Virus record (IMG/VR): IMGVR_UViG_3300024187_000023
Span: 1-25,769 of that record
Reading direction: 5' to 3' (one strand)
From: a virus
Lineage: Duplodnaviria > Caudoviricetes
DNA: 25,769 nucleotides
The position numbers were made by a program, and so were the translations under genes. Shown here piece after piece: positions 4,585 to 21,420 of the stretch. Position 1 is the stretch's first letter, and every line of letters begins with the position of its first letter. The notes beneath the pieces are model-generated. The model made no database searches and had not been told where the DNA came from. It worked only from the letters and a program-made list of their open reading frames with translations.

Positions 4585-5021
4585 AGCCCTGGCCCTGCCC
4601 GCGCTGCCAGTCCGAGCAGACGCACGACACGCACTGCCAGAACTGCGACCAGCCGCGCTTCCAGTGGTTCGAGGAGCAAATCTGCCGGCACATCCTCGAG
4701 CATATCGAGGACGGTATCAGCGAGCCGCTGGAGATGTTCACGGCGCTGAAGGACCGCGCGTGCTACGCGTCCTGGCCGGGCAGTGTGGTCCAGGTCGCGC
4801 GCTACATGCGGCTGCTGACGAAGGACACGAAGCTGCTCGCCGGCCAGATTGCCGACGCGCACGCCGCGCGCATGATGCTCGACGTGGTGCATCATGGCGA
4901 CACGAAGGACAAGATCGCGATCCTGAAGGGCCGCCAGGTGCTCGGCGACACGATCAAGCACGACATTCAAGGCACAACGGTCGTCAAGCACGTCTACGAG
5001 ACGGAGCCGCCGAAGTCGTGA
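4581..5021 (+). CDS. terS: Putative terminase small subunit with N-terminal zinc ribbon
   Basis: Immediately upstream of TerL with GTGA overlap; helical core and C-terminal GDTIKHDIQG beta-strand tail; WPCPRC...HCQNC at N-terminus; start trimmed to ATG 4581. Confidence 0.55.
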   Translation: MKPWPCPRCQSEQTHDTHCQNCDQPRFQWFEEQICRHILEHIEDGISEPLEMFTALKDRACYASWPGSVVQVARYMRLLTKDTKLLAGQIADAHAARMMLDVVHHGDTKDKIAILKGRQVLGDTIKHDIQGTTVVKHVYETEPPKS

Positions 5022-6421
5022 CCGAGCGCGTCGTCGAAATGCGCTGGCGCAAACCAATAAGTGATTTCATGCGCGACGAGACGCCAGAAATCGACCTTGA
5101 GGGCGCGCTGTCCAGTGGTAAAACGACCGCGTGTTGTTGGAAGGAATTCAACGCGTATCAGGAGATGCCAGGGATTCATGGCTGGATCGGTCGCTACGGC
5201 GACGGCGAGACACAAACGAAGGTCCGCCCAGCGTTTGAGCAGGTCTGTCAAGAGGCAGGGTGTATTCCACGTTGGAACGCGAAAGAACTCGCGTATGAAT
5301 TCCCAAATGGTTCGAAAGCGTTCAGCTACGGACTCAAGTCGCCTGATGCGCTCTCGCGCTACTCAAAGATGCGCGGCATGGGCGTGGCTCGCATCTACAA
5401 CGACCAGACGGAAGAACTGCCGGAGGACTTCAGTCTTGAGCTGCGCTTGCGCCTACGGCAACCGGGTTTTCCTCACCAGTTAATTTTTAGTCCCAACCCG
5501 CCTAACGTGACGCACTGGTTGGCGAAGCAGTTTCCCTCGAACAATAGCATCCCAAATCGCCGCTACTACGCAGTCAGTATCCACGATAACGCGCACAACC
5601 TACCCGCGGCGCTGTTGCAGGCGGCACTCCAGTCGTTTCCGCCGGATCATGCGAAGCATCGCAGTTCCATTCTCGGGCTGCGCGGCATGAACGTCACGGG
5701 CGAGCCGGTTTACAAGGGCGCGTTCGTGCGGGCGCTGCACGAGGTGAAGCTCGCGTATGACCCGCGCCTGCCGCTGGAGATGGGCCTCGACTTCGGGAAG
5801 CATCATCCGTGCGCGATCTTCCGGCAGGTGTCGCCGCTCGGGCAGGTCCGCTATCTCGGCGGCATTCTCGGCCAGTCGCTCTACTTGGATGACTTCCTCG
5901 ACCTCGTGCTGCGCTATCGCGCGCAGTGGTTCCCTGATCCGGTCGCGCTGAAAGAGTGCTGCGACCCGGCGGGCGCGTCGAATCCCATCGGCGTGGACAT
6001 GGGGCAGACGCTGCGATCGAAGGGCATCCGCGCCGTGTATCAGCAGGACAGCAACAGCCCGGCGATGCGCGTGGCCGCAGTGGAACGGATCGCGGCGCAA
6101 ATGCGACGGCGCGCGGCGGATCGGCAGGAGTCCTTCGCCATTAACAGCGATCCGGAGCGGTGGCTCACGATTTCCGAGTCGGCGACGACGCTGGACCTGT
6201 TCCTGGCGGATGGCTTCGAGGCTGGCTATGTGTGGGACGAGCACATGGTGAGCGTCGGCAACAAGCAAGTCCGCAAGCCGAAGGCGGACGGGTGGTATGA
6301 GCACGGGCAAGTCTGCACGCAGTATCTGGAGCTGAACTTCGGGAGTGCGCCGCCGAAGCCGCGGGTCCAGCGGCCGTCGCGGATGCCGATGGTGACAGGC
6401 GAGCACGGGTGGATGGGGTAG
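5018..6421 (+). CDS. terL: Terminase large subunit
   Basis: Walker A GALSSGKT, Walker B-like IYNDQTEE, SPNP coupling motif, nuclease MGLDFG and CDPAG; GTG start at 5018 after GGAG. Confidence 0.93.
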   Translation: MTERVVEMRWRKPISDFMRDETPEIDLEGALSSGKTTACCWKEFNAYQEMPGIHGWIGRYGDGETQTKVRPAFEQVCQEAGCIPRWNAKELAYEFPNGSKAFSYGLKSPDALSRYSKMRGMGVARIYNDQTEELPEDFSLELRLRLRQPGFPHQLIFSPNPPNVTHWLAKQFPSNNSIPNRRYYAVSIHDNAHNLPAALLQAALQSFPPDHAKHRSSILGLRGMNVTGEPVYKGAFVRALHEVKLAYDPRLPLEMGLDFGKHHPCAIFRQVSPLGQVRYLGGILGQSLYLDDFLDLVLRYRAQWFPDPVALKECCDPAGASNPIGVDMGQTLRSKGIRAVYQQDSNSPAMRVAAVERIAAQMRRRAADRQESFAINSDPERWLTISESATTLDLFLADGFEAGYVWDEHMVSVGNKQVRKPKADGWYEHGQVCTQYLELNFGSAPPKPRVQRPSRMPMVTGEHGWMG

Positions 6422-6445
6422 GGTGTATACTGCTGGGCGATTCGC

Positions 6446-6847
6446 ATGAACCGACGCGCCTTTCTCGCCACGCTCGCGACGGCTGCCGCAGGTCTAGCAC
6501 TCGATCCGGAGCGGTTGCTGTGGGTGCCGGGCGCGAAGACGATCTTCATGCCGGCAGAGAAGCCGTCGCTGGTGTCGTCGTGTGCGCTCAAGCGCGGAGA
6601 CGTCATAACGCTCAGCGGCGTGTTCGCGGTTAATCCGATGACTGGCGAGGAGCAACCCTACACCCAGCAATTCGTCATCACATCTGACGTGTCATACGGA
6701 GACGTGCCGGTTTCTCTGCTTTGTCCGCGCCCGATCGATGCGGGTCCGTATCGCAACGTGAATCGATTCAGCGGTAGGCACGCCGTCCAACCGCTGTTCA
6801 CCGGCAAGGAAATCCCCATCGCGGTGGAGTGGAGCATGCCCGCATGA
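6446..6847 (+). CDS. Twin-arginine-leader protein with stand-alone coat I-domain homologue
   Basis: MNRRAFL leader; residues 47-83 share 21/37 ungapped identities with coat residues 246-282. Confidence 0.8.
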   Translation: MNRRAFLATLATAAAGLALDPERLLWVPGAKTIFMPAEKPSLVSSCALKRGDVITLSGVFAVNPMTGEEQPYTQQFVITSDVSYGDVPVSLLCPRPIDAGPYRNVNRFSGRHAVQPLFTGKEIPIAVEWSMPA

Positions 6848-7182
6848 GTGAAGCCTCCGAGCGCATCAAACGCCGCGATCTTCGCCGCGCGGTCGGCGTG
6901 GAAGCGGTCAGCGAAATTGAACAGCAGGGCGTGGCGCTCGCGCATCACGCGTTCGTGCTGAACCAGCACACGCAGCAGTTGCACGAGGTGCAGAAGCGGA
7001 TCGATGCGACCTCGGAGTGGGCCGCGCGCACGCATCCCGCAGGCACGCTCGTGCCGATTGTCGTCTACGACGTCCAGACAGACACGCACGGGTTTCACGA
7101 CGCACAAGCGAGGCAGGCTGTGCGCCTCGCCATCGGGGCGTCCTTCCTAGCCCGTCTCCGCTGGCTGTTCCTCGGACGCTGA
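6844..7182 (+). CDS. Hypothetical coiled-coil protein with amphipathic C-terminus
   Basis: ATGA overlap start at 6844; ends SFLARLRWLFLGR. Confidence 0.7.
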   Translation: MSEASERIKRRDLRRAVGVEAVSEIEQQGVALAHHAFVLNQHTQQLHEVQKRIDATSEWAARTHPAGTLVPIVVYDVQTDTHGFHDAQARQAVRLAIGASFLARLRWLFLGR

Positions 7183-7185
7183 TCC

Positions 7186-9522
7186 ATGCCTGCCTCTACC
7201 GCCACGAAGAAATTCCTCCAACTCGCCCGAGACCGCTTCAAGCTCGGGCAAGAGGCGAAGTCGAAGCAGACCAAGCGCGAACTCGAGGACATCGCGTTCT
7301 ACAACGGCGAGCAGTGGCCGGAGGATGTGAAGAACATCCGCAAGGGGCAAGCCGCACAGAACGGGATGCCGCCCGTGCCTGCGCGGCCGATGATCACCAT
7401 CAACAAGACGCGGCCCCCGATTCAGCAGGTGCTGAACGGCGAGCGCCAGTCGGACATGGGCATCTCGATCGTGCCGGCCGACGACTTCGGCGACGTAGCC
7501 GAGCCGATCGACGAGACGGAAATCAAGCTGCGCGAAGGGCTCGTGCGCCGCATCCAGCGGGAGTCGAAAGCCGCCGACGCGCGGACGTGGGCGTTCTCGC
7601 GCGCGGTGATTGCCGGGTCCGGCTACTACGGCGTGATGACGCGCTACGTGCCTGGCAAGACCAACGATCAGGAAATCTTCGTCAACCGCTTCTATAACCA
7701 AGCGTGCGTGACGGGCGATCCCGCGCGTGAACAGCCGGACGGGTCGGATGCGGAGTGGTGGTTCGTCGCCACGGATCTGCCGCAAGACGCCTACATCGCG
7801 GAGTATCCGAAGCGCAAAAACCAGAGGAACGCGCTCTGCGACTGTTCGGATGACCAGTGGCGTGCGCTCGGCGACGAGCGGCCGGAGTGGTTCCACACGG
7901 ACGGTGAGACGCGCATGGTCCGCGTGGTGGACTACTGGTATACGGTGCGCGAGAGCCGAGAACTGGTGACGTTCACGGACGGCCAGTCCGAGCGCGTGGA
8001 GTGGTCCGACGAAGTGGACGAGTTGCCGGACCTCGAAGGCTGGCAGGAAGTCGAGGACTCGCGCCGCACCGTCGTCGAGAAGCGCATCAAGTGGGCGAAA
8101 CTGGACGGCTGCGACGATGACGTGCTCGATGACACCGACTGGCTCGGGCCGGACATGCCGATCATCGAAGTCGTCGGAGAAGAACTGCAGCCGCACGACA
8201 AGGAACGGCGCCGTGAGGGTATGGTGCGCTCGATGCGGGCGCCCGGCTACGGGTTCAACGTCATGGTGTCGCGGTGGCTGGAGCTGATCGGCCTCGCGCC
8301 GCTCGTGCCGGTGATGGTCGAAGAGGGCACCATCGAAGGCTACGAGGATTGGTGGGTCGCCGCGAACACGCGGACGCTGCCGTATCTCCCCTACAAGCGC
8401 ACGAATCTCGATAACGGGCAGGCGAATCCCCCTACGGTGCCGCCGTCGCGCAATCCGCCGATTGAAGCCGTCGCGGCCTCGGTGCAGATGTTCGACGAGT
8501 CCATCCAGAGCACGAGCGGCATTCACGCGTCGGCGCTCGGCGAAGCGGCGCCGTCCGTCCGCAGCAAGCGGCAGAATGCGCAGCTCATCGAACAGAGCCA
8601 GAAGGGCGTCAGCCACTTTCTCGATAACCTGCAGCGGTCGATTCGCTACGAGGGACAGGTGATCAACAACCTGCTCTATCCGGTTTTCGGGCGTCCGGGC
8701 CGTCTCGCGCGCATCGTGAACGCGGAAGGCGACGCCGAGACGGTGCTGCTGCACACACCGATGGTGATGCAGGGCGGGAAGGCGATGCCGGCGCCGCAGG
8801 GCCATCCGAATCCGCAGACCTACACGCTGACGAAGGACGCGAAGTTTAACGTCACCGTGAAGGTGTCGAAGAATTTCGATTCGCGGCGTGAGCAGGAAGC
8901 CACGATCATCGGGGAACTGCTCGCGGCGAATCCGGAACTCATGACGTGGTTCGGCGATCTGTTCTTCCAGAACCAAGACGGTCCCGGCCATCAGCAGATG
9001 GCGGATCGTGCGAAAGTGATGCTCGCGCCGCCGATTCAGCAGATGCTCGCGGCGAAGGCGAGCGGGCAGAACGTGCCGCCGGAAGTGCAGGCGCAACTCG
9101 CGCAGGCGCAGCAGCAGATTCAGCAGTTGCAGGCGGAATTGCAGAAGGCGGCGAAGCCCACTGCGGTGGAGGAGATTCGGCAGCAGGGGCAGAGCGAGCG
9201 GACGCATCTGGAGCTGTTGGCGGATCGGGAGAAGCTGCACATCGAGTCCGAGACGAAGATCGCGGTCGCGGAACTCGGCGCGAAGGTGGATCGGCTCGCG
9301 CTGTTCCTCGAAGAGCGGGCGCGCATCGGCGTGCAGGATCACGCGGTCGGGATGGCCGCGATGGATCAGGCGCACGCGCGAGAGATGGCCGAGCGCGGGC
9401 AGGCGCACGAATCCGCCGAAGCGGCGAGCGGGCGCGAAGCGACGGCCGAGCAGGCGGAAGCGGCACGCGCGCACGACGCGGAGATGGCCGCGCAGGCGGC
9501 GCAGCAGCAGCCGGAGGCGTGA
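7186..9522 (+). CDS. Portal protein (P22 gp1-like)
   Basis: 778 aa; FYNGEQWP, RPMITINK, DP-x-QPDGSDAEW, GMVRSMR, long Gln/Ala-rich C-terminal barrel helix; position after terL. Confidence 0.93.
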   Translation: MPASTATKKFLQLARDRFKLGQEAKSKQTKRELEDIAFYNGEQWPEDVKNIRKGQAAQNGMPPVPARPMITINKTRPPIQQVLNGERQSDMGISIVPADDFGDVAEPIDETEIKLREGLVRRIQRESKAADARTWAFSRAVIAGSGYYGVMTRYVPGKTNDQEIFVNRFYNQACVTGDPAREQPDGSDAEWWFVATDLPQDAYIAEYPKRKNQRNALCDCSDDQWRALGDERPEWFHTDGETRMVRVVDYWYTVRESRELVTFTDGQSERVEWSDEVDELPDLEGWQEVEDSRRTVVEKRIKWAKLDGCDDDVLDDTDWLGPDMPIIEVVGEELQPHDKERRREGMVRSMRAPGYGFNVMVSRWLELIGLAPLVPVMVEEGTIEGYEDWWVAANTRTLPYLPYKRTNLDNGQANPPTVPPSRNPPIEAVAASVQMFDESIQSTSGIHASALGEAAPSVRSKRQNAQLIEQSQKGVSHFLDNLQRSIRYEGQVINNLLYPVFGRPGRLARIVNAEGDAETVLLHTPMVMQGGKAMPAPQGHPNPQTYTLTKDAKFNVTVKVSKNFDSRREQEATIIGELLAANPELMTWFGDLFFQNQDGPGHQQMADRAKVMLAPPIQQMLAAKASGQNVPPEVQAQLAQAQQQIQQLQAELQKAAKPTAVEEIRQQGQSERTHLELLADREKLHIESETKIAVAELGAKVDRLALFLEERARIGVQDHAVGMAAMDQAHAREMAERGQAHESAEAASGREATAEQAEAARAHDAEMAAQAAQQQPEA

Positions 9523-11629: not shown

Positions 11630-12064
11630 ATGAAGACCGATTGGACTGATTCGGAACTAGCCTATCTCGCCGGAATTATCGACGGCGAAGGATGCTTTGT
11701 CTTGCACGACCACGGAAGCCATCGTTTCGGATGCGCCTTGGCTGTGGGCAACACCGACCCTCGACTCACGGAATGGTTACGAGCGAGATTCGGTGGTTCT
11801 GTAGGCGTTGAAAAGCGCGGTCAGCGGTGGAAAGCCTGCTATCGATGGAAGGCAAGCGCCAAAGACCTCGAATCAATCATCTTGGCTGTTTTGCCGTTTC
11901 TGGTCATCAAAAGGGATCGCGCGGAATTGATACTCGCGTATCGACGCACGCTGAATCCGTCAATTAGTGGCCCGAGAAAGGCAGACGTCACATCCCAAGC
12001 GGTCAAGACCGAGCGACGCGCGATTCATTCGCAGTTGGCGGTCTTGAACAAGAGGGGAGCGTAG
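11630..12064 (+). CDS. Free-standing single-motif LAGLIDADG homing endonuclease
   Basis: LAYLAGIIDGEGC, FGG, LPFLVIKRDRA; TAAGGA then ATG 11630; visibly more AT-rich than neighbours. Confidence 0.92.
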   Translation: MKTDWTDSELAYLAGIIDGEGCFVLHDHGSHRFGCALAVGNTDPRLTEWLRARFGGSVGVEKRGQRWKACYRWKASAKDLESIILAVLPFLVIKRDRAELILAYRRTLNPSISGPRKADVTSQAVKTERRAIHSQLAVLNKRGA

Positions 12065-12069
12065 GTTAC

Positions 12070-13293
12070 ATGGACAGTTTTATTTCGCCAACTTGGGTCA
12101 CCAAGGACACGGCGGTCAACTTCAAGAACAACCTGAAGCTGATCGGTCTGTTCGACCGCACGTGGGAAAAAGGCGCGTGGGGCAACAAACCGCAGGGCGC
12201 ACAGATCGGCGACACCGTGCAGGTGCGTATCCAGCAGCGGTGGCAGGTCAACGAGGGCCAGGCGCTCGTCCAGCAGTCGATTCTCAACCAGACCGTCCCG
12301 CTGACGATCAATCACCAGTTCCAGATTGGCATGGGGTGGTCGAGCTCGCAGGACGCACTCGAAGTCGAAGAGGTGCAGGACCGCTACACGAAGACCGCCG
12401 GACGTCGGCAGGCCAACAAGTGGGACGTGACCGCGGGCAAGGAAGTCTACAAGTCGGTCTACTTCTCGATCGGCCAGCCTGGCGTGCCGCTGTCGGACAA
12501 CAAGACGTGGACCGATGGCGTCGCGCTGCTCCACAACAACGCGGTGCCGGACGACGAACTACTGGCGGTGCTCGATCCGCTGTCTCAGTCGGCGATCATG
12601 AATCCGAACTTCGCGCTGTTCCAGCCGAAGAACGACTACTTCAAGAAGGGGCAGTTCTCCGGCGCCGCGCTCGGCGTGGATCAGTGGTATTGGGACCCGA
12701 ACATCCCGACGCACACCACCGGCACGTTCACGGCCTCGACGCCGGCCGTCAACGCGGGCAGCCAGACCGGCTCGACGCTCGCAACGGACGGCTGGGGCAC
12801 CTACGCGCTCAAGGCGGGCGACGTGTTCACGCTGGACGGCGTCTACGGCATCAATCCGGAGTCCTACGAGTCCACCGGGCAGTTGCAGCAGTTCGTCCTC
12901 ACGGGGGACGTGTCGGGGTCGAGCACGGCGACGCTGGCGTTCTCGCCGTCGATCATCCCGAGCGGGCAGCTCCAGACGGTGAACCAGTCGCCGGCCGACA
13001 ATGCGGCGATCTCGTTCCTCGGCTCGACGGGCACCGTGGGCGCGACGATGGCGGCGCAGTCCTCGCGGCAGTCGCTGATGTTCAACCCGGCCGCGTTCGC
13101 GTTCGCGATGGTGGATCTGCCGGACAAGCTGGCTGGCGCGAACGCCAAGACCGTGGGCGACCGCGCGACAAAGATTTCGATGCGCTGGGTCGAGCAGTAC
13201 AACATCCAGACGGACCAGAACCCGTCGCGTGTGGACACCTTGGGCGGCATCGCGCCGATTCTGCCCTATTTCGCCCTGCGGGCGTGGAGCTAA
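12070..13293 (+). CDS. Major capsid (coat) protein, P22 gp5-like
   Basis: QIGDTVQVR, DPNIPTHTTG, I-domain LKAGDVFTLDGV...NP...QQFV, FAMVDLP, RVDTLGG; strongly biased codons. Confidence 0.93.
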   Translation: MDSFISPTWVTKDTAVNFKNNLKLIGLFDRTWEKGAWGNKPQGAQIGDTVQVRIQQRWQVNEGQALVQQSILNQTVPLTINHQFQIGMGWSSSQDALEVEEVQDRYTKTAGRRQANKWDVTAGKEVYKSVYFSIGQPGVPLSDNKTWTDGVALLHNNAVPDDELLAVLDPLSQSAIMNPNFALFQPKNDYFKKGQFSGAALGVDQWYWDPNIPTHTTGTFTASTPAVNAGSQTGSTLATDGWGTYALKAGDVFTLDGVYGINPESYESTGQLQQFVLTGDVSGSSTATLAFSPSIIPSGQLQTVNQSPADNAAISFLGSTGTVGATMAAQSSRQSLMFNPAAFAFAMVDLPDKLAGANAKTVGDRATKISMRWVEQYNIQTDQNPSRVDTLGGIAPILPYFALRAWS

Positions 13294-19704: not shown

Positions 19705-21420
19705 ATGGCGACCAAGGTCTATACGGACGCCGAGATTGATTTCGTCTCCGCGACGGGTGCGGCTGGGAATTGGGCGACGGTCGCCGCTGGCTGGACCGGG
19801 ATGAACGGCGATAGCGGTGTCGTGACGGGCGGCACGGGCGATCTACTCATCGTATTGGGTGAACCGCACGACGACGGAAGCCTGCCTACCGATATACGCT
19901 TCAGCAACGTGCGCACCGAGTTCGACTACGAGGTGGTCAATGTCGGCGGCTTGTCTCCGGAGACGTTTTTTAGCGCCACATTCGGCAGTCTCGTCAGCGG
20001 CACGGCTAATCAGGGGCCGGGCACGACGACAGGGCATCTCGTGTTCGATGCCAACGCTACCTACTTTGGCGGCCTCTACGGAGGCAGCCGATCGGATTTT
20101 TTCACTGGCGGGGGGCTATTTTTAGGATTCGGCAGGGAACCCGGCGGCACGGCAACCTCCACGCGACTCATCATCACGAACTACACCGTCACGCTCACCT
20201 ACGTCAGCCTGTCAACAGGATGGATCGTGAAAGTGAACGGTCTGACGAATCCGACCGGAGACACGGACGGATCGGCGCTACCGGATCAAGCGTTTCTCCC
20301 CAATGCGTCGATGTCTGGAACGATTGACCTCCCGATCTACGACACGGCGGGCGCGTTCATCTACGTTGATGGCGCTGCGCCGGTCGATGTGTCGGGACTC
20401 CCGGCCGGATTTACGCCCGATGACGCCTACAGCGTCTGGAATCTCATCGGCAACCAGGAAATCGGCGACACGACGGAATATGCTCTTTCAGGCGTATTCG
20501 ATTTCACGCACACCGATACGGGCACACCGGCCGAAGGCACGCAGTTCATCACCGAACTGACCGGCATGACGCTCGTGAAGTTGTCGGGCATGGTGGGACA
20601 GACGATTCTCGGCTCGATGGTGTCCTCGGCCGCTGGTGGTGGCCCCGCGCGCTGTTCTATTTCGGCGCAAACCGGATTCCCGACACCGCCAGACCAGACG
20701 TTCTACCTTCAAGGTTTCTACACGCTCGTCTCGCCGACGTTCACGAGCCTCAGTCCCGCGTCCGGCCTCATCCTCGGCGGCACGCTCGTCACGCTGTTCG
20801 GGACGTTTCTCGACGCTGGCATGACGGTGGAGTTCGACGGCGTCGCCGCGACGGTGCAAGACGTGTTCAACGACGGCACGGTGATGACGGTGCTGACGCC
20901 GGCCCATGCGGTCGGCGTCGTGGACGTCGAAATCCTGACCGTGGACACGCTGACGAACGCCTACACCTACGTGTCGGTGCTCAGCGTCACGCCGAGTTCC
21001 GGCACGATTCTCGGCGGCACGCCGGTCGTCATCAAGGGCGCCGGATTCACGGGTGCGACGGGCGTGGAGTTTGACGGCGTGGCCGCGACCGATGTTGTCG
21101 TGGTGAACGACCAGCGCATCACGGCTGTGACGCCCGCGCACGCGGCTGGTGCGGTGGACGTCGAAGTGCTCGTCGGCATCGGCACGCTCACGGGCGGCTA
21201 CACCTACGCGGCTCCTGGGAGAATCAAACTCCCGCCGGTCCCGGTGCTGTCGCCCGTCGCGCAGCCCGATGGCGGCACGTTCGGCGGAGGCGCGGCGGGG
21301 AAACCGGCGGGCGGGCGCAACGGAGGGGGATTCGGCGGTGCGAAACAAGCGCCGATGCAGACAGAGCATCTGCGGTGGCTCATGGCGGTGAAGCAAGCGA
21401 TCGAGGAACAGTCGAACTAG
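19705..21420 (+). CDS. Virion protein with two IPT/TIG Ig-like domains and a C-terminal tail-needle-anchor-like segment
   Basis: Two P.SG...GGT.V...G......V.FDG......TPAHA.G.VDV repeats (about 20734-21210); occupies the gp26 position after gp10. Confidence 0.75.
   Translation: MATKVYTDAEIDFVSATGAAGNWATVAAGWTGMNGDSGVVTGGTGDLLIVLGEPHDDGSLPTDIRFSNVRTEFDYEVVNVGGLSPETFFSATFGSLVSGTANQGPGTTTGHLVFDANATYFGGLYGGSRSDFFTGGGLFLGFGREPGGTATSTRLIITNYTVTLTYVSLSTGWIVKVNGLTNPTGDTDGSALPDQAFLPNASMSGTIDLPIYDTAGAFIYVDGAAPVDVSGLPAGFTPDDAYSVWNLIGNQEIGDTTEYALSGVFDFTHTDTGTPAEGTQFITELTGMTLVKLSGMVGQTILGSMVSSAAGGGPARCSISAQTGFPTPPDQTFYLQGFYTLVSPTFTSLSPASGLILGGTLVTLFGTFLDAGMTVEFDGVAATVQDVFNDGTVMTVLTPAHAVGVVDVEILTVDTLTNAYTYVSVLSVTPSSGTILGGTPVVIKGAGFTGATGVEFDGVAATDVVVVNDQRITAVTPAHAAGAVDVEVLVGIGTLTGGYTYAAPGRIKLPPVPVLSPVAQPDGGTFGGGAAGKPAGGRNGGGFGGAKQAPMQTEHLRWLMAVKQAIEEQSN

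Follow-up and report, generated by a model that had tools for sequence, protein, structure and literature searches.

A twin-arginine-type leader in front of a stand-alone coat I-domain in a P22-like phage, and a family of leader genes that often carry pieces of head proteins

Why would a tailed phage carry one domain of its coat protein as a separate gene, behind a leader of the type used for export? The window, the whole stretch of 25,769 nucleotides analysed here, is part of a P22-like phage with terminase, portal (PF16510), scaffold, coat (PF11651, phrog_283), head closure and ejection genes. The gene that raises the question is placed between terminase and portal. This order is also found in the loci L001 and L002, and in L194 the flanking frames resemble terminase and portal by eye. 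The features concerned are as follows.

5021..6421, + strand: terminase large subunit, upstream neighbour (PF04466, E 1.5e-4; phrog_979; inferred start codon)
6446..6847, + strand: gene for a Tat-type leader and a stand-alone coat I-domain (ATG start, 133 aa)
6560..6811, + strand: residues 39-122 of this gene, P22-type coat I-domain beta-barrel (from sequence and predicted fold)
7186..9522, + strand: P22-like portal, downstream (PF16510, E 2e-110)
12070-13293: the phage's own coat gene (PF11651, phrog_283; model against Sf6 and P22 coats, TM 0.75)
12799..12987, + strand: I-domain stretch of the own coat that matches the ORF, aa 244-306 (BLASTP)

A 112-aa ORF without a family (6844-7182, + strand) overlaps the stop of the gene; it is kept in L001 (82%, dN/dS 0.32), and a different ORF stands in its place in L002.

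An earlier note on this DNA had reported an ungapped match with 21/37 identities between two 37-residue segments starting at 6584 and 12805. Both starts and the count hold, and BLASTP extends the similarity to residues 45-107 of the ORF against residues 244-306 of the own coat (26/63 identical, 41%, ungapped, pairwise E 1e-12). The ORF matches a profile of 26 coats, the window's own included, at E 2e-12, and PHROGs assigns it to the major head protein family phrog_283 (E 0.004), to which the 13 long homologues are all assigned too, at E 9e-6 to 0.31. The AlphaFold2 model, built on a 14-row alignment, has a pLDDT of 88-95 over residues 41-120 and of 57-69 over the first 40. Among 48,161 solved chains compared by VIA, the top five are coats or isolated I-domains of CUS-3, P22 and Sf6 (Z 5.1-7.2, the next row being 3.3); a Z under 8 is moderate, and rank and sequence agree. 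Superposed on P22 residues 232-348, the model aligns over 82 residues (Z 5.9, rmsd 3.2), and the Atlas structure rows for the ORF are P22 coat. Foldseek also ranks CUS-3, P22 and Sf6 entries first, the best at E 0.006; because it gave no match at E 0.001 or better, the claim of an I-domain fold rests on rank, VIA and sequence together. This fold comparison had been proposed in the earlier note, and its outcome agrees with the I-domain suggested there.

In sequence motif and beta-barrel fold, the cargo resembles the I-domain of the P22, CUS-3 and Sf6 coats (PDB 2M5S, 6MNT; P22 gp5 residues 222-345), which is a non-conserved accessory domain of the coat (PMC9965877). It differs from this domain in being shorter, in having a gene and a leader of its own, and in lacking an HK97 fold around it: the N-arm, P- and A-domains and E-loop are absent from the 133-aa ORF, in which only the I-domain stretch matches coat.

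Judged by its pattern of substitutions, the ORF is a real, old and selected gene. Occurrence in this genome alone with a dN/dS near 1, which the earlier note had named as evidence against its proposal, is contradicted. Searching 72 candidates gave 34 proteins; besides the query itself, 13 align over 65-100% of its length (38-62% identity), while for 20 the match is mainly to the leader. The dN/dS of the gene is 0.068 against L001 (dS 0.40) and 0.085 against L192 (dS 0.32), relatives that are 94% identical, and 0.28 and 0.26 against the 58-61% identical homologues of L002 and L194. For the cargo alone it is 0.084 (L001) and 0.081 (L192), compared with 0.081 for the own coat gene, and the leader stands at 0.03 versus 0.08 for the cargo. 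Purifying selection acts on the cargo itself (p 1e-9), which keeps 16/19 conserved coat columns. Many family cargos do look degenerate, as a decaying duplication without function would, but for the window gene these ratios and homologues already contradict that explanation and leave it a negligible chance.

Only 95/189 nt are identical between the cargo and the own coat gene, so the copy is old. In a tree of 40 rows (73 columns), the window cargo falls among other cargos and away from the own coat, with weak support; in local alignments against 23 coats, the own coat and that of G014, the closest complete relative of the window phage, score best. The grouping with other cargos fits an old duplication inside this coat family, one of the origins that the earlier note had suggested. 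Recent copying from the own coat was also considered and is ruled out by the nucleotide identity and the tree.

The N-terminus of the gene and the sequence before it contain three further features.

6426..6431, + strand: -10-like hexamer TATACT, candidate promoter element starting at -20, 14 nt before the ATG
6446..6502, + strand: residues 1-19, twin-arginine motif and 15-residue uncharged h-region (mean hydropathy 1.92 over residues 5-19)
6503..6553, + strand: residues 20-36, conserved DPERLLWVPGxKxI motif, c-region-like or linker (low model confidence)

With 15 uncharged residues, the leader is above the TatFind threshold of at least 13 for the h-region. Its N-R-R-A-F-L fits the motif Z-R-R-x-Phi-Phi, which follows a positive n-region in Tat signals (PMC13673990), and MNRRAFL, whose fit to the Tat consensus the earlier note had claimed, is present at the very start; a Tat-type leader is supported on sequence. 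The TIGR01409 score of 16.7 bits is exactly the cut-off, which 8/29 scanned family members reach; PF10518 has no match to the ORF at E 0.1, and Pfam assigns the ORF no family. Candidate signal peptidase sites are A-A-G at residues 14-16 and V-P-G at residues 27-29, neither of them uniform across the family. No conserved AxA site is clear in the family leaders, and a Cys near the h-region, examined as a lipobox check, is found in 3/133. D20, W26 and G29 are invariant across 32 aligned leaders. A derivation of DPERLLWVPG from coat is unsupported (best E 0.012 over the leaders tested).

When searched with a clean profile, the leader also matched N-terminal sequences of Acidobacteriota host enzymes, among them a fucosidase, a sulfatase and a molybdopterin oxidoreductase; it thus resembles a Tat signal of host type to which a fixed extension has been added. 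Of 12 such N-termini scanned, 6 match PF10518, 3 of them above the cut-off, and several end in a similar A-x-L-D-P. Like Tat signal peptides (TIGR01409, PF10518), which comprise a cleaved class I and an uncleaved, Rieske-type class III (PMC13673990), the leaders have Z-R-R-x-hydrophobic-hydrophobic, a positive n-region and an uncharged h-region. Unlike them, they are phage-encoded, with a two-residue n-region, a short h-region, the fixed DPERLLWVPG, and a virion fragment instead of an enzyme as cargo.

The TATACT that the earlier note had placed at 6426-6431 is confirmed by reading the window. L001 and L192 keep it, whereas the upstream stretches read in L002 and L194 do not show it; neither a full sigma-70 promoter nor a -35 box was found upstream of the window gene. 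Across the family, TANNNT occurs at -12/-13 in 15/80 leader genes versus 0/189 control starts, an excess that suggests own, leaderless promoters for a subset of them. By the usual marks of a moron (own promoter and terminator, distinct base composition), the window gene shows the -10-like box only: no + strand terminator was found at it, and its GC of 0.64 is like that of its flanks.

The leader was found in 63 viral, 7 genome and 80 metagenome loci, the window's own record being among the 80. Searched against 1.84 billion representatives, its profile matches up to 2,431 clusters at E 0.001, an upper bound because weak matches may include ordinary Tat signals; the best 150 of the 2,431 are 46-201 aa long. 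Because this profile carried all of L063 into its match states (123 positions), E-loop cargos are favoured among its best matches. Among the 133 DPERLLW carriers taken from loci, 117 fit Z-R-R-x-Phi-Phi and 128 have RR, while four of the five others begin at a contig edge. The uncharged stretch reaches at least 13 residues in 72/128 leaders and only 9-12 in 56/128. Mean column identity of the leader is 59%, and it is far better conserved than the cargo. With the ORF and P0139 as tblastn queries, 50,697 GenBank phage records gave matches to coat genes only, in 29 and 33 records and none covering 80%, so there is no cultured carrier in hand.

RR leaders without DPERLLW can also bear coat fragments (L122:15997-16290, L144:9913-10236, L133:8659-9231, L098:9796-10116, L169:14384-14869), and the class is therefore wider than the leader profile. 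G025 has four leader genes, and L143:2281-3445 (G031) holds two tandem RR-leader paralogues of 181-197 aa with a cargo unrelated to any profile tested. Leaderless C-terminal coat fragments are found at L002:2948-3274 (E 0.006), directly upstream of the I-domain gene of L002, and at L176:6926-7216 (E 0.002). Fragment genes can use other N-termini as well, since G781 has, near its leader gene, a coat-spine fragment with a non-RR hydrophobic N-terminus and a leaderless mini-portal (L299:3839-4252 and L299:6165-6959), the latter at E 7e-6 to its own portal.

What do these leaders carry? The search of viral databases and catalogue of cargos that the earlier note had proposed uncovered a family whose cargos are often pieces of head proteins. 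Its reading of a stand-alone I-domain stands for the window gene and falls short as the whole scope, the family cargo being a rotating set of such pieces. Cargo comparisons drew on most of 41 carrier records. Against the large ORFs of their own record, 24/88 cargos match at E 0.01 (3/440 shuffles do), the targets being 22 coats, one probable head-tail adaptor and one unannotated ORF. Against 95 profiles from carrier genomes, 106/255 distinct cargos match, versus 0/510 shuffled and 5/255 reversed; the 255 include proteins found with the I-domain query, and less biased subsets give 36/108 (representatives matched by leader alone) and 38/84. In an independent set, 15/67 are assigned versus 0/134 shuffled. 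Cargos without assignment number 149/255, and 52/67 in the independent set.

Among the 106 assigned, 95 correspond to coat, 6 to portal, 3 to a probable adaptor, and single ones to head closure and an internal virion family; there are also three single weak matches to other clusters, one an antiterminator. Among 145 representatives, PHROGs searches recovered one piece of portal, one that is adaptor-like and one of terminase, the last (P0094) containing Walker A (E 8e-4). Six coat families give cargo (phrog_283, 14242, 371, 9953, 212 and 133), in the form of N-arm, E-loop, I-domain or C-terminus. In L084, N-arm, I-domain and C-terminal coat pieces are carried by three leader genes in tandem. 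Some cargos are spliced: P0120 from portal profile positions 49-93 and 324-353, P0133 from adaptor profile positions 34-78 and 203-221, L185:15723-16070 from coat N-arm and C-terminus, and the G040 cargo is likewise joined from two regions. A short C-terminal motif, EF-x-RR-Y-P or similar, is found in L039:1932-2126, L252:765-1091, P0104, P0115 and P0175; by eye it is like a portal segment, and it has no profile match.

It could be supposed that the leader is the working part, occupying TatC or altering the envelope, and that the cargo rides along, having been picked up from head genes. The far better conservation of the leader (in column identity and in dN/dS), the many cargos without assignment and the fact that some are very short would all suit this. 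Against it, however, are the purifying selection on the cargo and its retained coat columns, as well as its reading frame: matches keep that of the coat, and antisense-frame profiles of coat and portal match no cargo. Moreover, just 1/250 other small ORFs match a coat profile, and the donor gene often lies far off, on the opposite strand (13/19 matched leader genes lie opposite the coat gene, 16-65 kb away in record coordinates). We therefore regard a role of the leader alone as decidedly unlikely. In the reverse direction, 33/41 small ORFs that match coat, portal or adaptor outside the main genes have an RR leader, in genomes picked for having one; among the other 8, 4 are edge pieces of real genes.

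An alternative suggested by the terminase-portal position in the window, L001 and L002 is that the protein serves assembly, or is a minor component of the virion, and anchors the phage's own procapsids to the membrane or chaperones them there; the I-domain does help coat folding and assembly in P22 (PMC5701804). Yet the cargos are interchangeable and non-overlapping, and many family members sit in the replication region. Furthermore, the 167 GenBank phage records that match this coat type have no second matching place, which means that phages of this type assemble without a leader gene. Such a role has, in our view, a slim chance. More generally, one structural role does not account for pieces that do not overlap, are sometimes spliced, or come as three tandem genes (L084).

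We favour a different reading, to which we give a probability of about 0.4: the leader-I-domain proteins may be decoys, which would bind the host factors that sense capsids and, through Tat, tether these factors or export them together with the decoy. It is favoured because no single structural task accounts for cargos that can be, interchangeably, pieces of coat, portal, adaptor or terminase, proteins whose common trait is that bacteria sense them (10.64898/2026.01.04.697583; PMC13728456). Sensor targets include the MCP, portal, portal adaptor and nozzle, and Lit and CapRel read short MCP motifs (Lee et al., 10.64898/2026.01.04.697583); the assigned cargos are mostly such proteins. The agreement of coat family between cargo and genome, the purifying selection on the cargo, the frequent location of leader genes far from the coat gene and on the opposite strand, and the many near-complete records without an integrase match speak for the decoy reading as well. 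A non-assembling replica of a head-protein surface would bind the host factor that senses or attacks capsid proteins. The decoy would be expressed from a promoter of its own, no later than the coat; its leader would engage TatC; the cargo would bind the host sensor or inhibitor; and the complex would stay at the inner membrane or, by Tat hitchhiking, be carried into the periplasm, leaving the defence silent. Tat can export heterodimers via one signal peptide (PMC10924467, PMC13111641) and tolerates small unfolded cargo (PMC13673990). A broader version, in which phages of Acidobacteriota, and perhaps of other hosts, keep a modular decoy library, in which one Tat leader is joined to segments taken from the coat, portal, adaptor and terminase of the phage itself, and which deports sensors to the periplasm, seems to us rather doubtful.

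One main difficulty for the decoy reading is the part of the coat that the cargos appear to avoid. The 67 matches to the coat profile, which are not independent events, centre on the N-arm/F-loop (26), E-loop (8), spine (5), I-domain (17) and post-I region (11). None centres on positions 131-225, although these are equally detectable; they correspond approximately to the main A-domain block, P22 residues 128-221 (PMC9965877), and the A-domain is what Avs7, Avs8 and Avs10 bind, by whole-fold recognition (10.64898/2026.01.04.697583). A-domain pieces could trigger the sensors or poison assembly, or the target could be no sensor at all. In the parts covered of the capsid-sensing literature, no sensor of the I-domain is named. 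Two other main difficulties are that most cargos have no assignment and that leaderless head-protein fragments exist. In addition, export would take the decoy out of the cytoplasm, where known sensors act, and the 9-12 uncharged residues of many leaders are short for export. Replication proteins are Avs targets too (10.64898/2026.01.04.697583) and are absent among the cargos. From the other side, this absence counts in favour of the decoy reading, in that profiles of DNA polymerase, primase, helicase, exonuclease, recombinase and methylase match no cargo although such genes lie at most 3 kb from many leader genes.

The place of action might instead be outside the cytoplasm, with the protein exported, cleaved, and soaking up periplasmic or secreted capsid-binding factors or acting after lysis. 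The likeness of the leader to the N-termini of host exported-type enzymes would be in keeping with this, as would the I-domain itself, which in P22 is folded and situated on the outer capsid face. Many cargos, however, are inner-face (N-arm) or non-virion (terminase Walker A) pieces that never meet the periplasm, and the conserved AxA site is not clear; we consider this explanation improbable.

The same distribution of pieces bears on interference. On this explanation the targets would be related phages that infect the same cell, or satellites: the fragments would attach to the coat, scaffold or portal of the former, or to the capsid-hijacking proteins of the latter, and hold these at the membrane. 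The most frequent pieces (34/67) are those of N-arm, F-loop and E-loop, which in P22 make contacts with scaffold and between subunits (PMC9965877), but the capsomer-forming A-domain is never copied. The family of the coat cargo is that of the genome's coat in 21/21 cases where both are known, 14 more having no coat in the record. Because the cargo belongs to the phage's own coat family, self-poisoning would be expected under interference. Thirteen loci have a common N-terminal piece of a second coat family, for which all seven records at least 65% complete hold a 418-434-aa ORF with a matching N-terminus (4 match phrog_14242, E below 1e-4). The own coat ranks first in 6/11 P22-like cases, which again speaks against interference, whereas in the phrog_14242 group another phage's coat often outscores the own (own ranks 1-5 of 7), which speaks for it; these ranks could come from relatedness alone, and strict tracking of the own coat is unproven.

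Lifestyle also bears on both sides of the interference explanation. One carrier is an integrated prophage: in G680:C35 (family of a genome labelled Bryobacteraceae), host FabH and radical-SAM genes and an integrase are followed by a P22-like prophage with a leader and N-arm gene in its early region. Among 20 near-complete records, 8 have a recombinase match; the 12 others, G014 included, have no tyrosine integrase or resolvase match, which points to a role during lytic growth, and the window gene sits in the terminase-portal block. On balance, interference appears unlikely. As for hosts, 3/7 genome loci are in bins labelled Acidobacteriota, and such bins can be wrong; the G680:C35 prophage, which adjoins host genes, is firmer evidence. 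The full leader was found in 1/401 genomes of a phylum-wide search (the centre itself) and in 3/401 of a family-wide one, with 19 candidates scored per genome in each. The G680 prophage also contains, beside its ejection genes, an open frame of 5,149 codons (L297:384-15830, - strand).

Returning to the decoy reading, its parts are known, and the overall design matches no system found. Fv1 and Ty1 p22 are capsid-derived, dominant-negative restriction factors. In them too a fragment of a capsid gene is reused as a separate protein, but they are eukaryotic, encoded by the host or the element, have no export leader and use one fixed fragment. The DNA mimic Ocr, and DSAD1, which acts against the tail-tube sensor DSR2, would share the logic of a small phage protein occupying a defence protein; in the sources covered, neither is presented as copying the sequence of its trigger or as bearing an export signal. 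The main text of the EVADES preprint (10.1101/2025.06.06.658234) contains no mention of capsid, twin-arginine or signal peptide. In Tat hitchhiker export, known from natural heterodimers and FLI-TRAP, a signal-bearing protein carries a bound partner across the membrane; phage use of it was not found in the literature searched and is here a hypothesis. Likewise, no description of a family of leaders with head fragments was found in that literature, a scope that excludes most subscription journals and the bioRxiv supplements of EVADES and Lee et al.

How do phages hide proteins that they cannot change, such as coat, portal and terminase, from the pattern receptors of bacteria? A direct test is offered by a family of up to thousands of small genes in which pieces of exactly these proteins are copied behind one export-type tag: the pieces would be ready-made baits for host sensors, and the tag suggests that a sensor is disarmed by moving it. 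If the reading as a decoy library is true, the cargo catalogue would be a phage-written map of the epitopes watched by bacterial immunity, including those of sensors not yet known. If the proteins interfere with other phages instead, they would still represent an undescribed phage use of capsid fragments and the Tat pathway.

Two other genes of the window deserve mention. A LAGLIDADG/HNH-type endonuclease gene (11630-12064, + strand; PF00961 weak, phrog_5046 E 3e-23) lies between scaffold and coat; in G014, the scaffold ORF reaches the coat, without the gap seen at the endonuclease gene of the window. The virion module also encodes a 571-aa protein (19705-21420, + strand) with two IPT/TIG domains (PF01833, E 1e-19).
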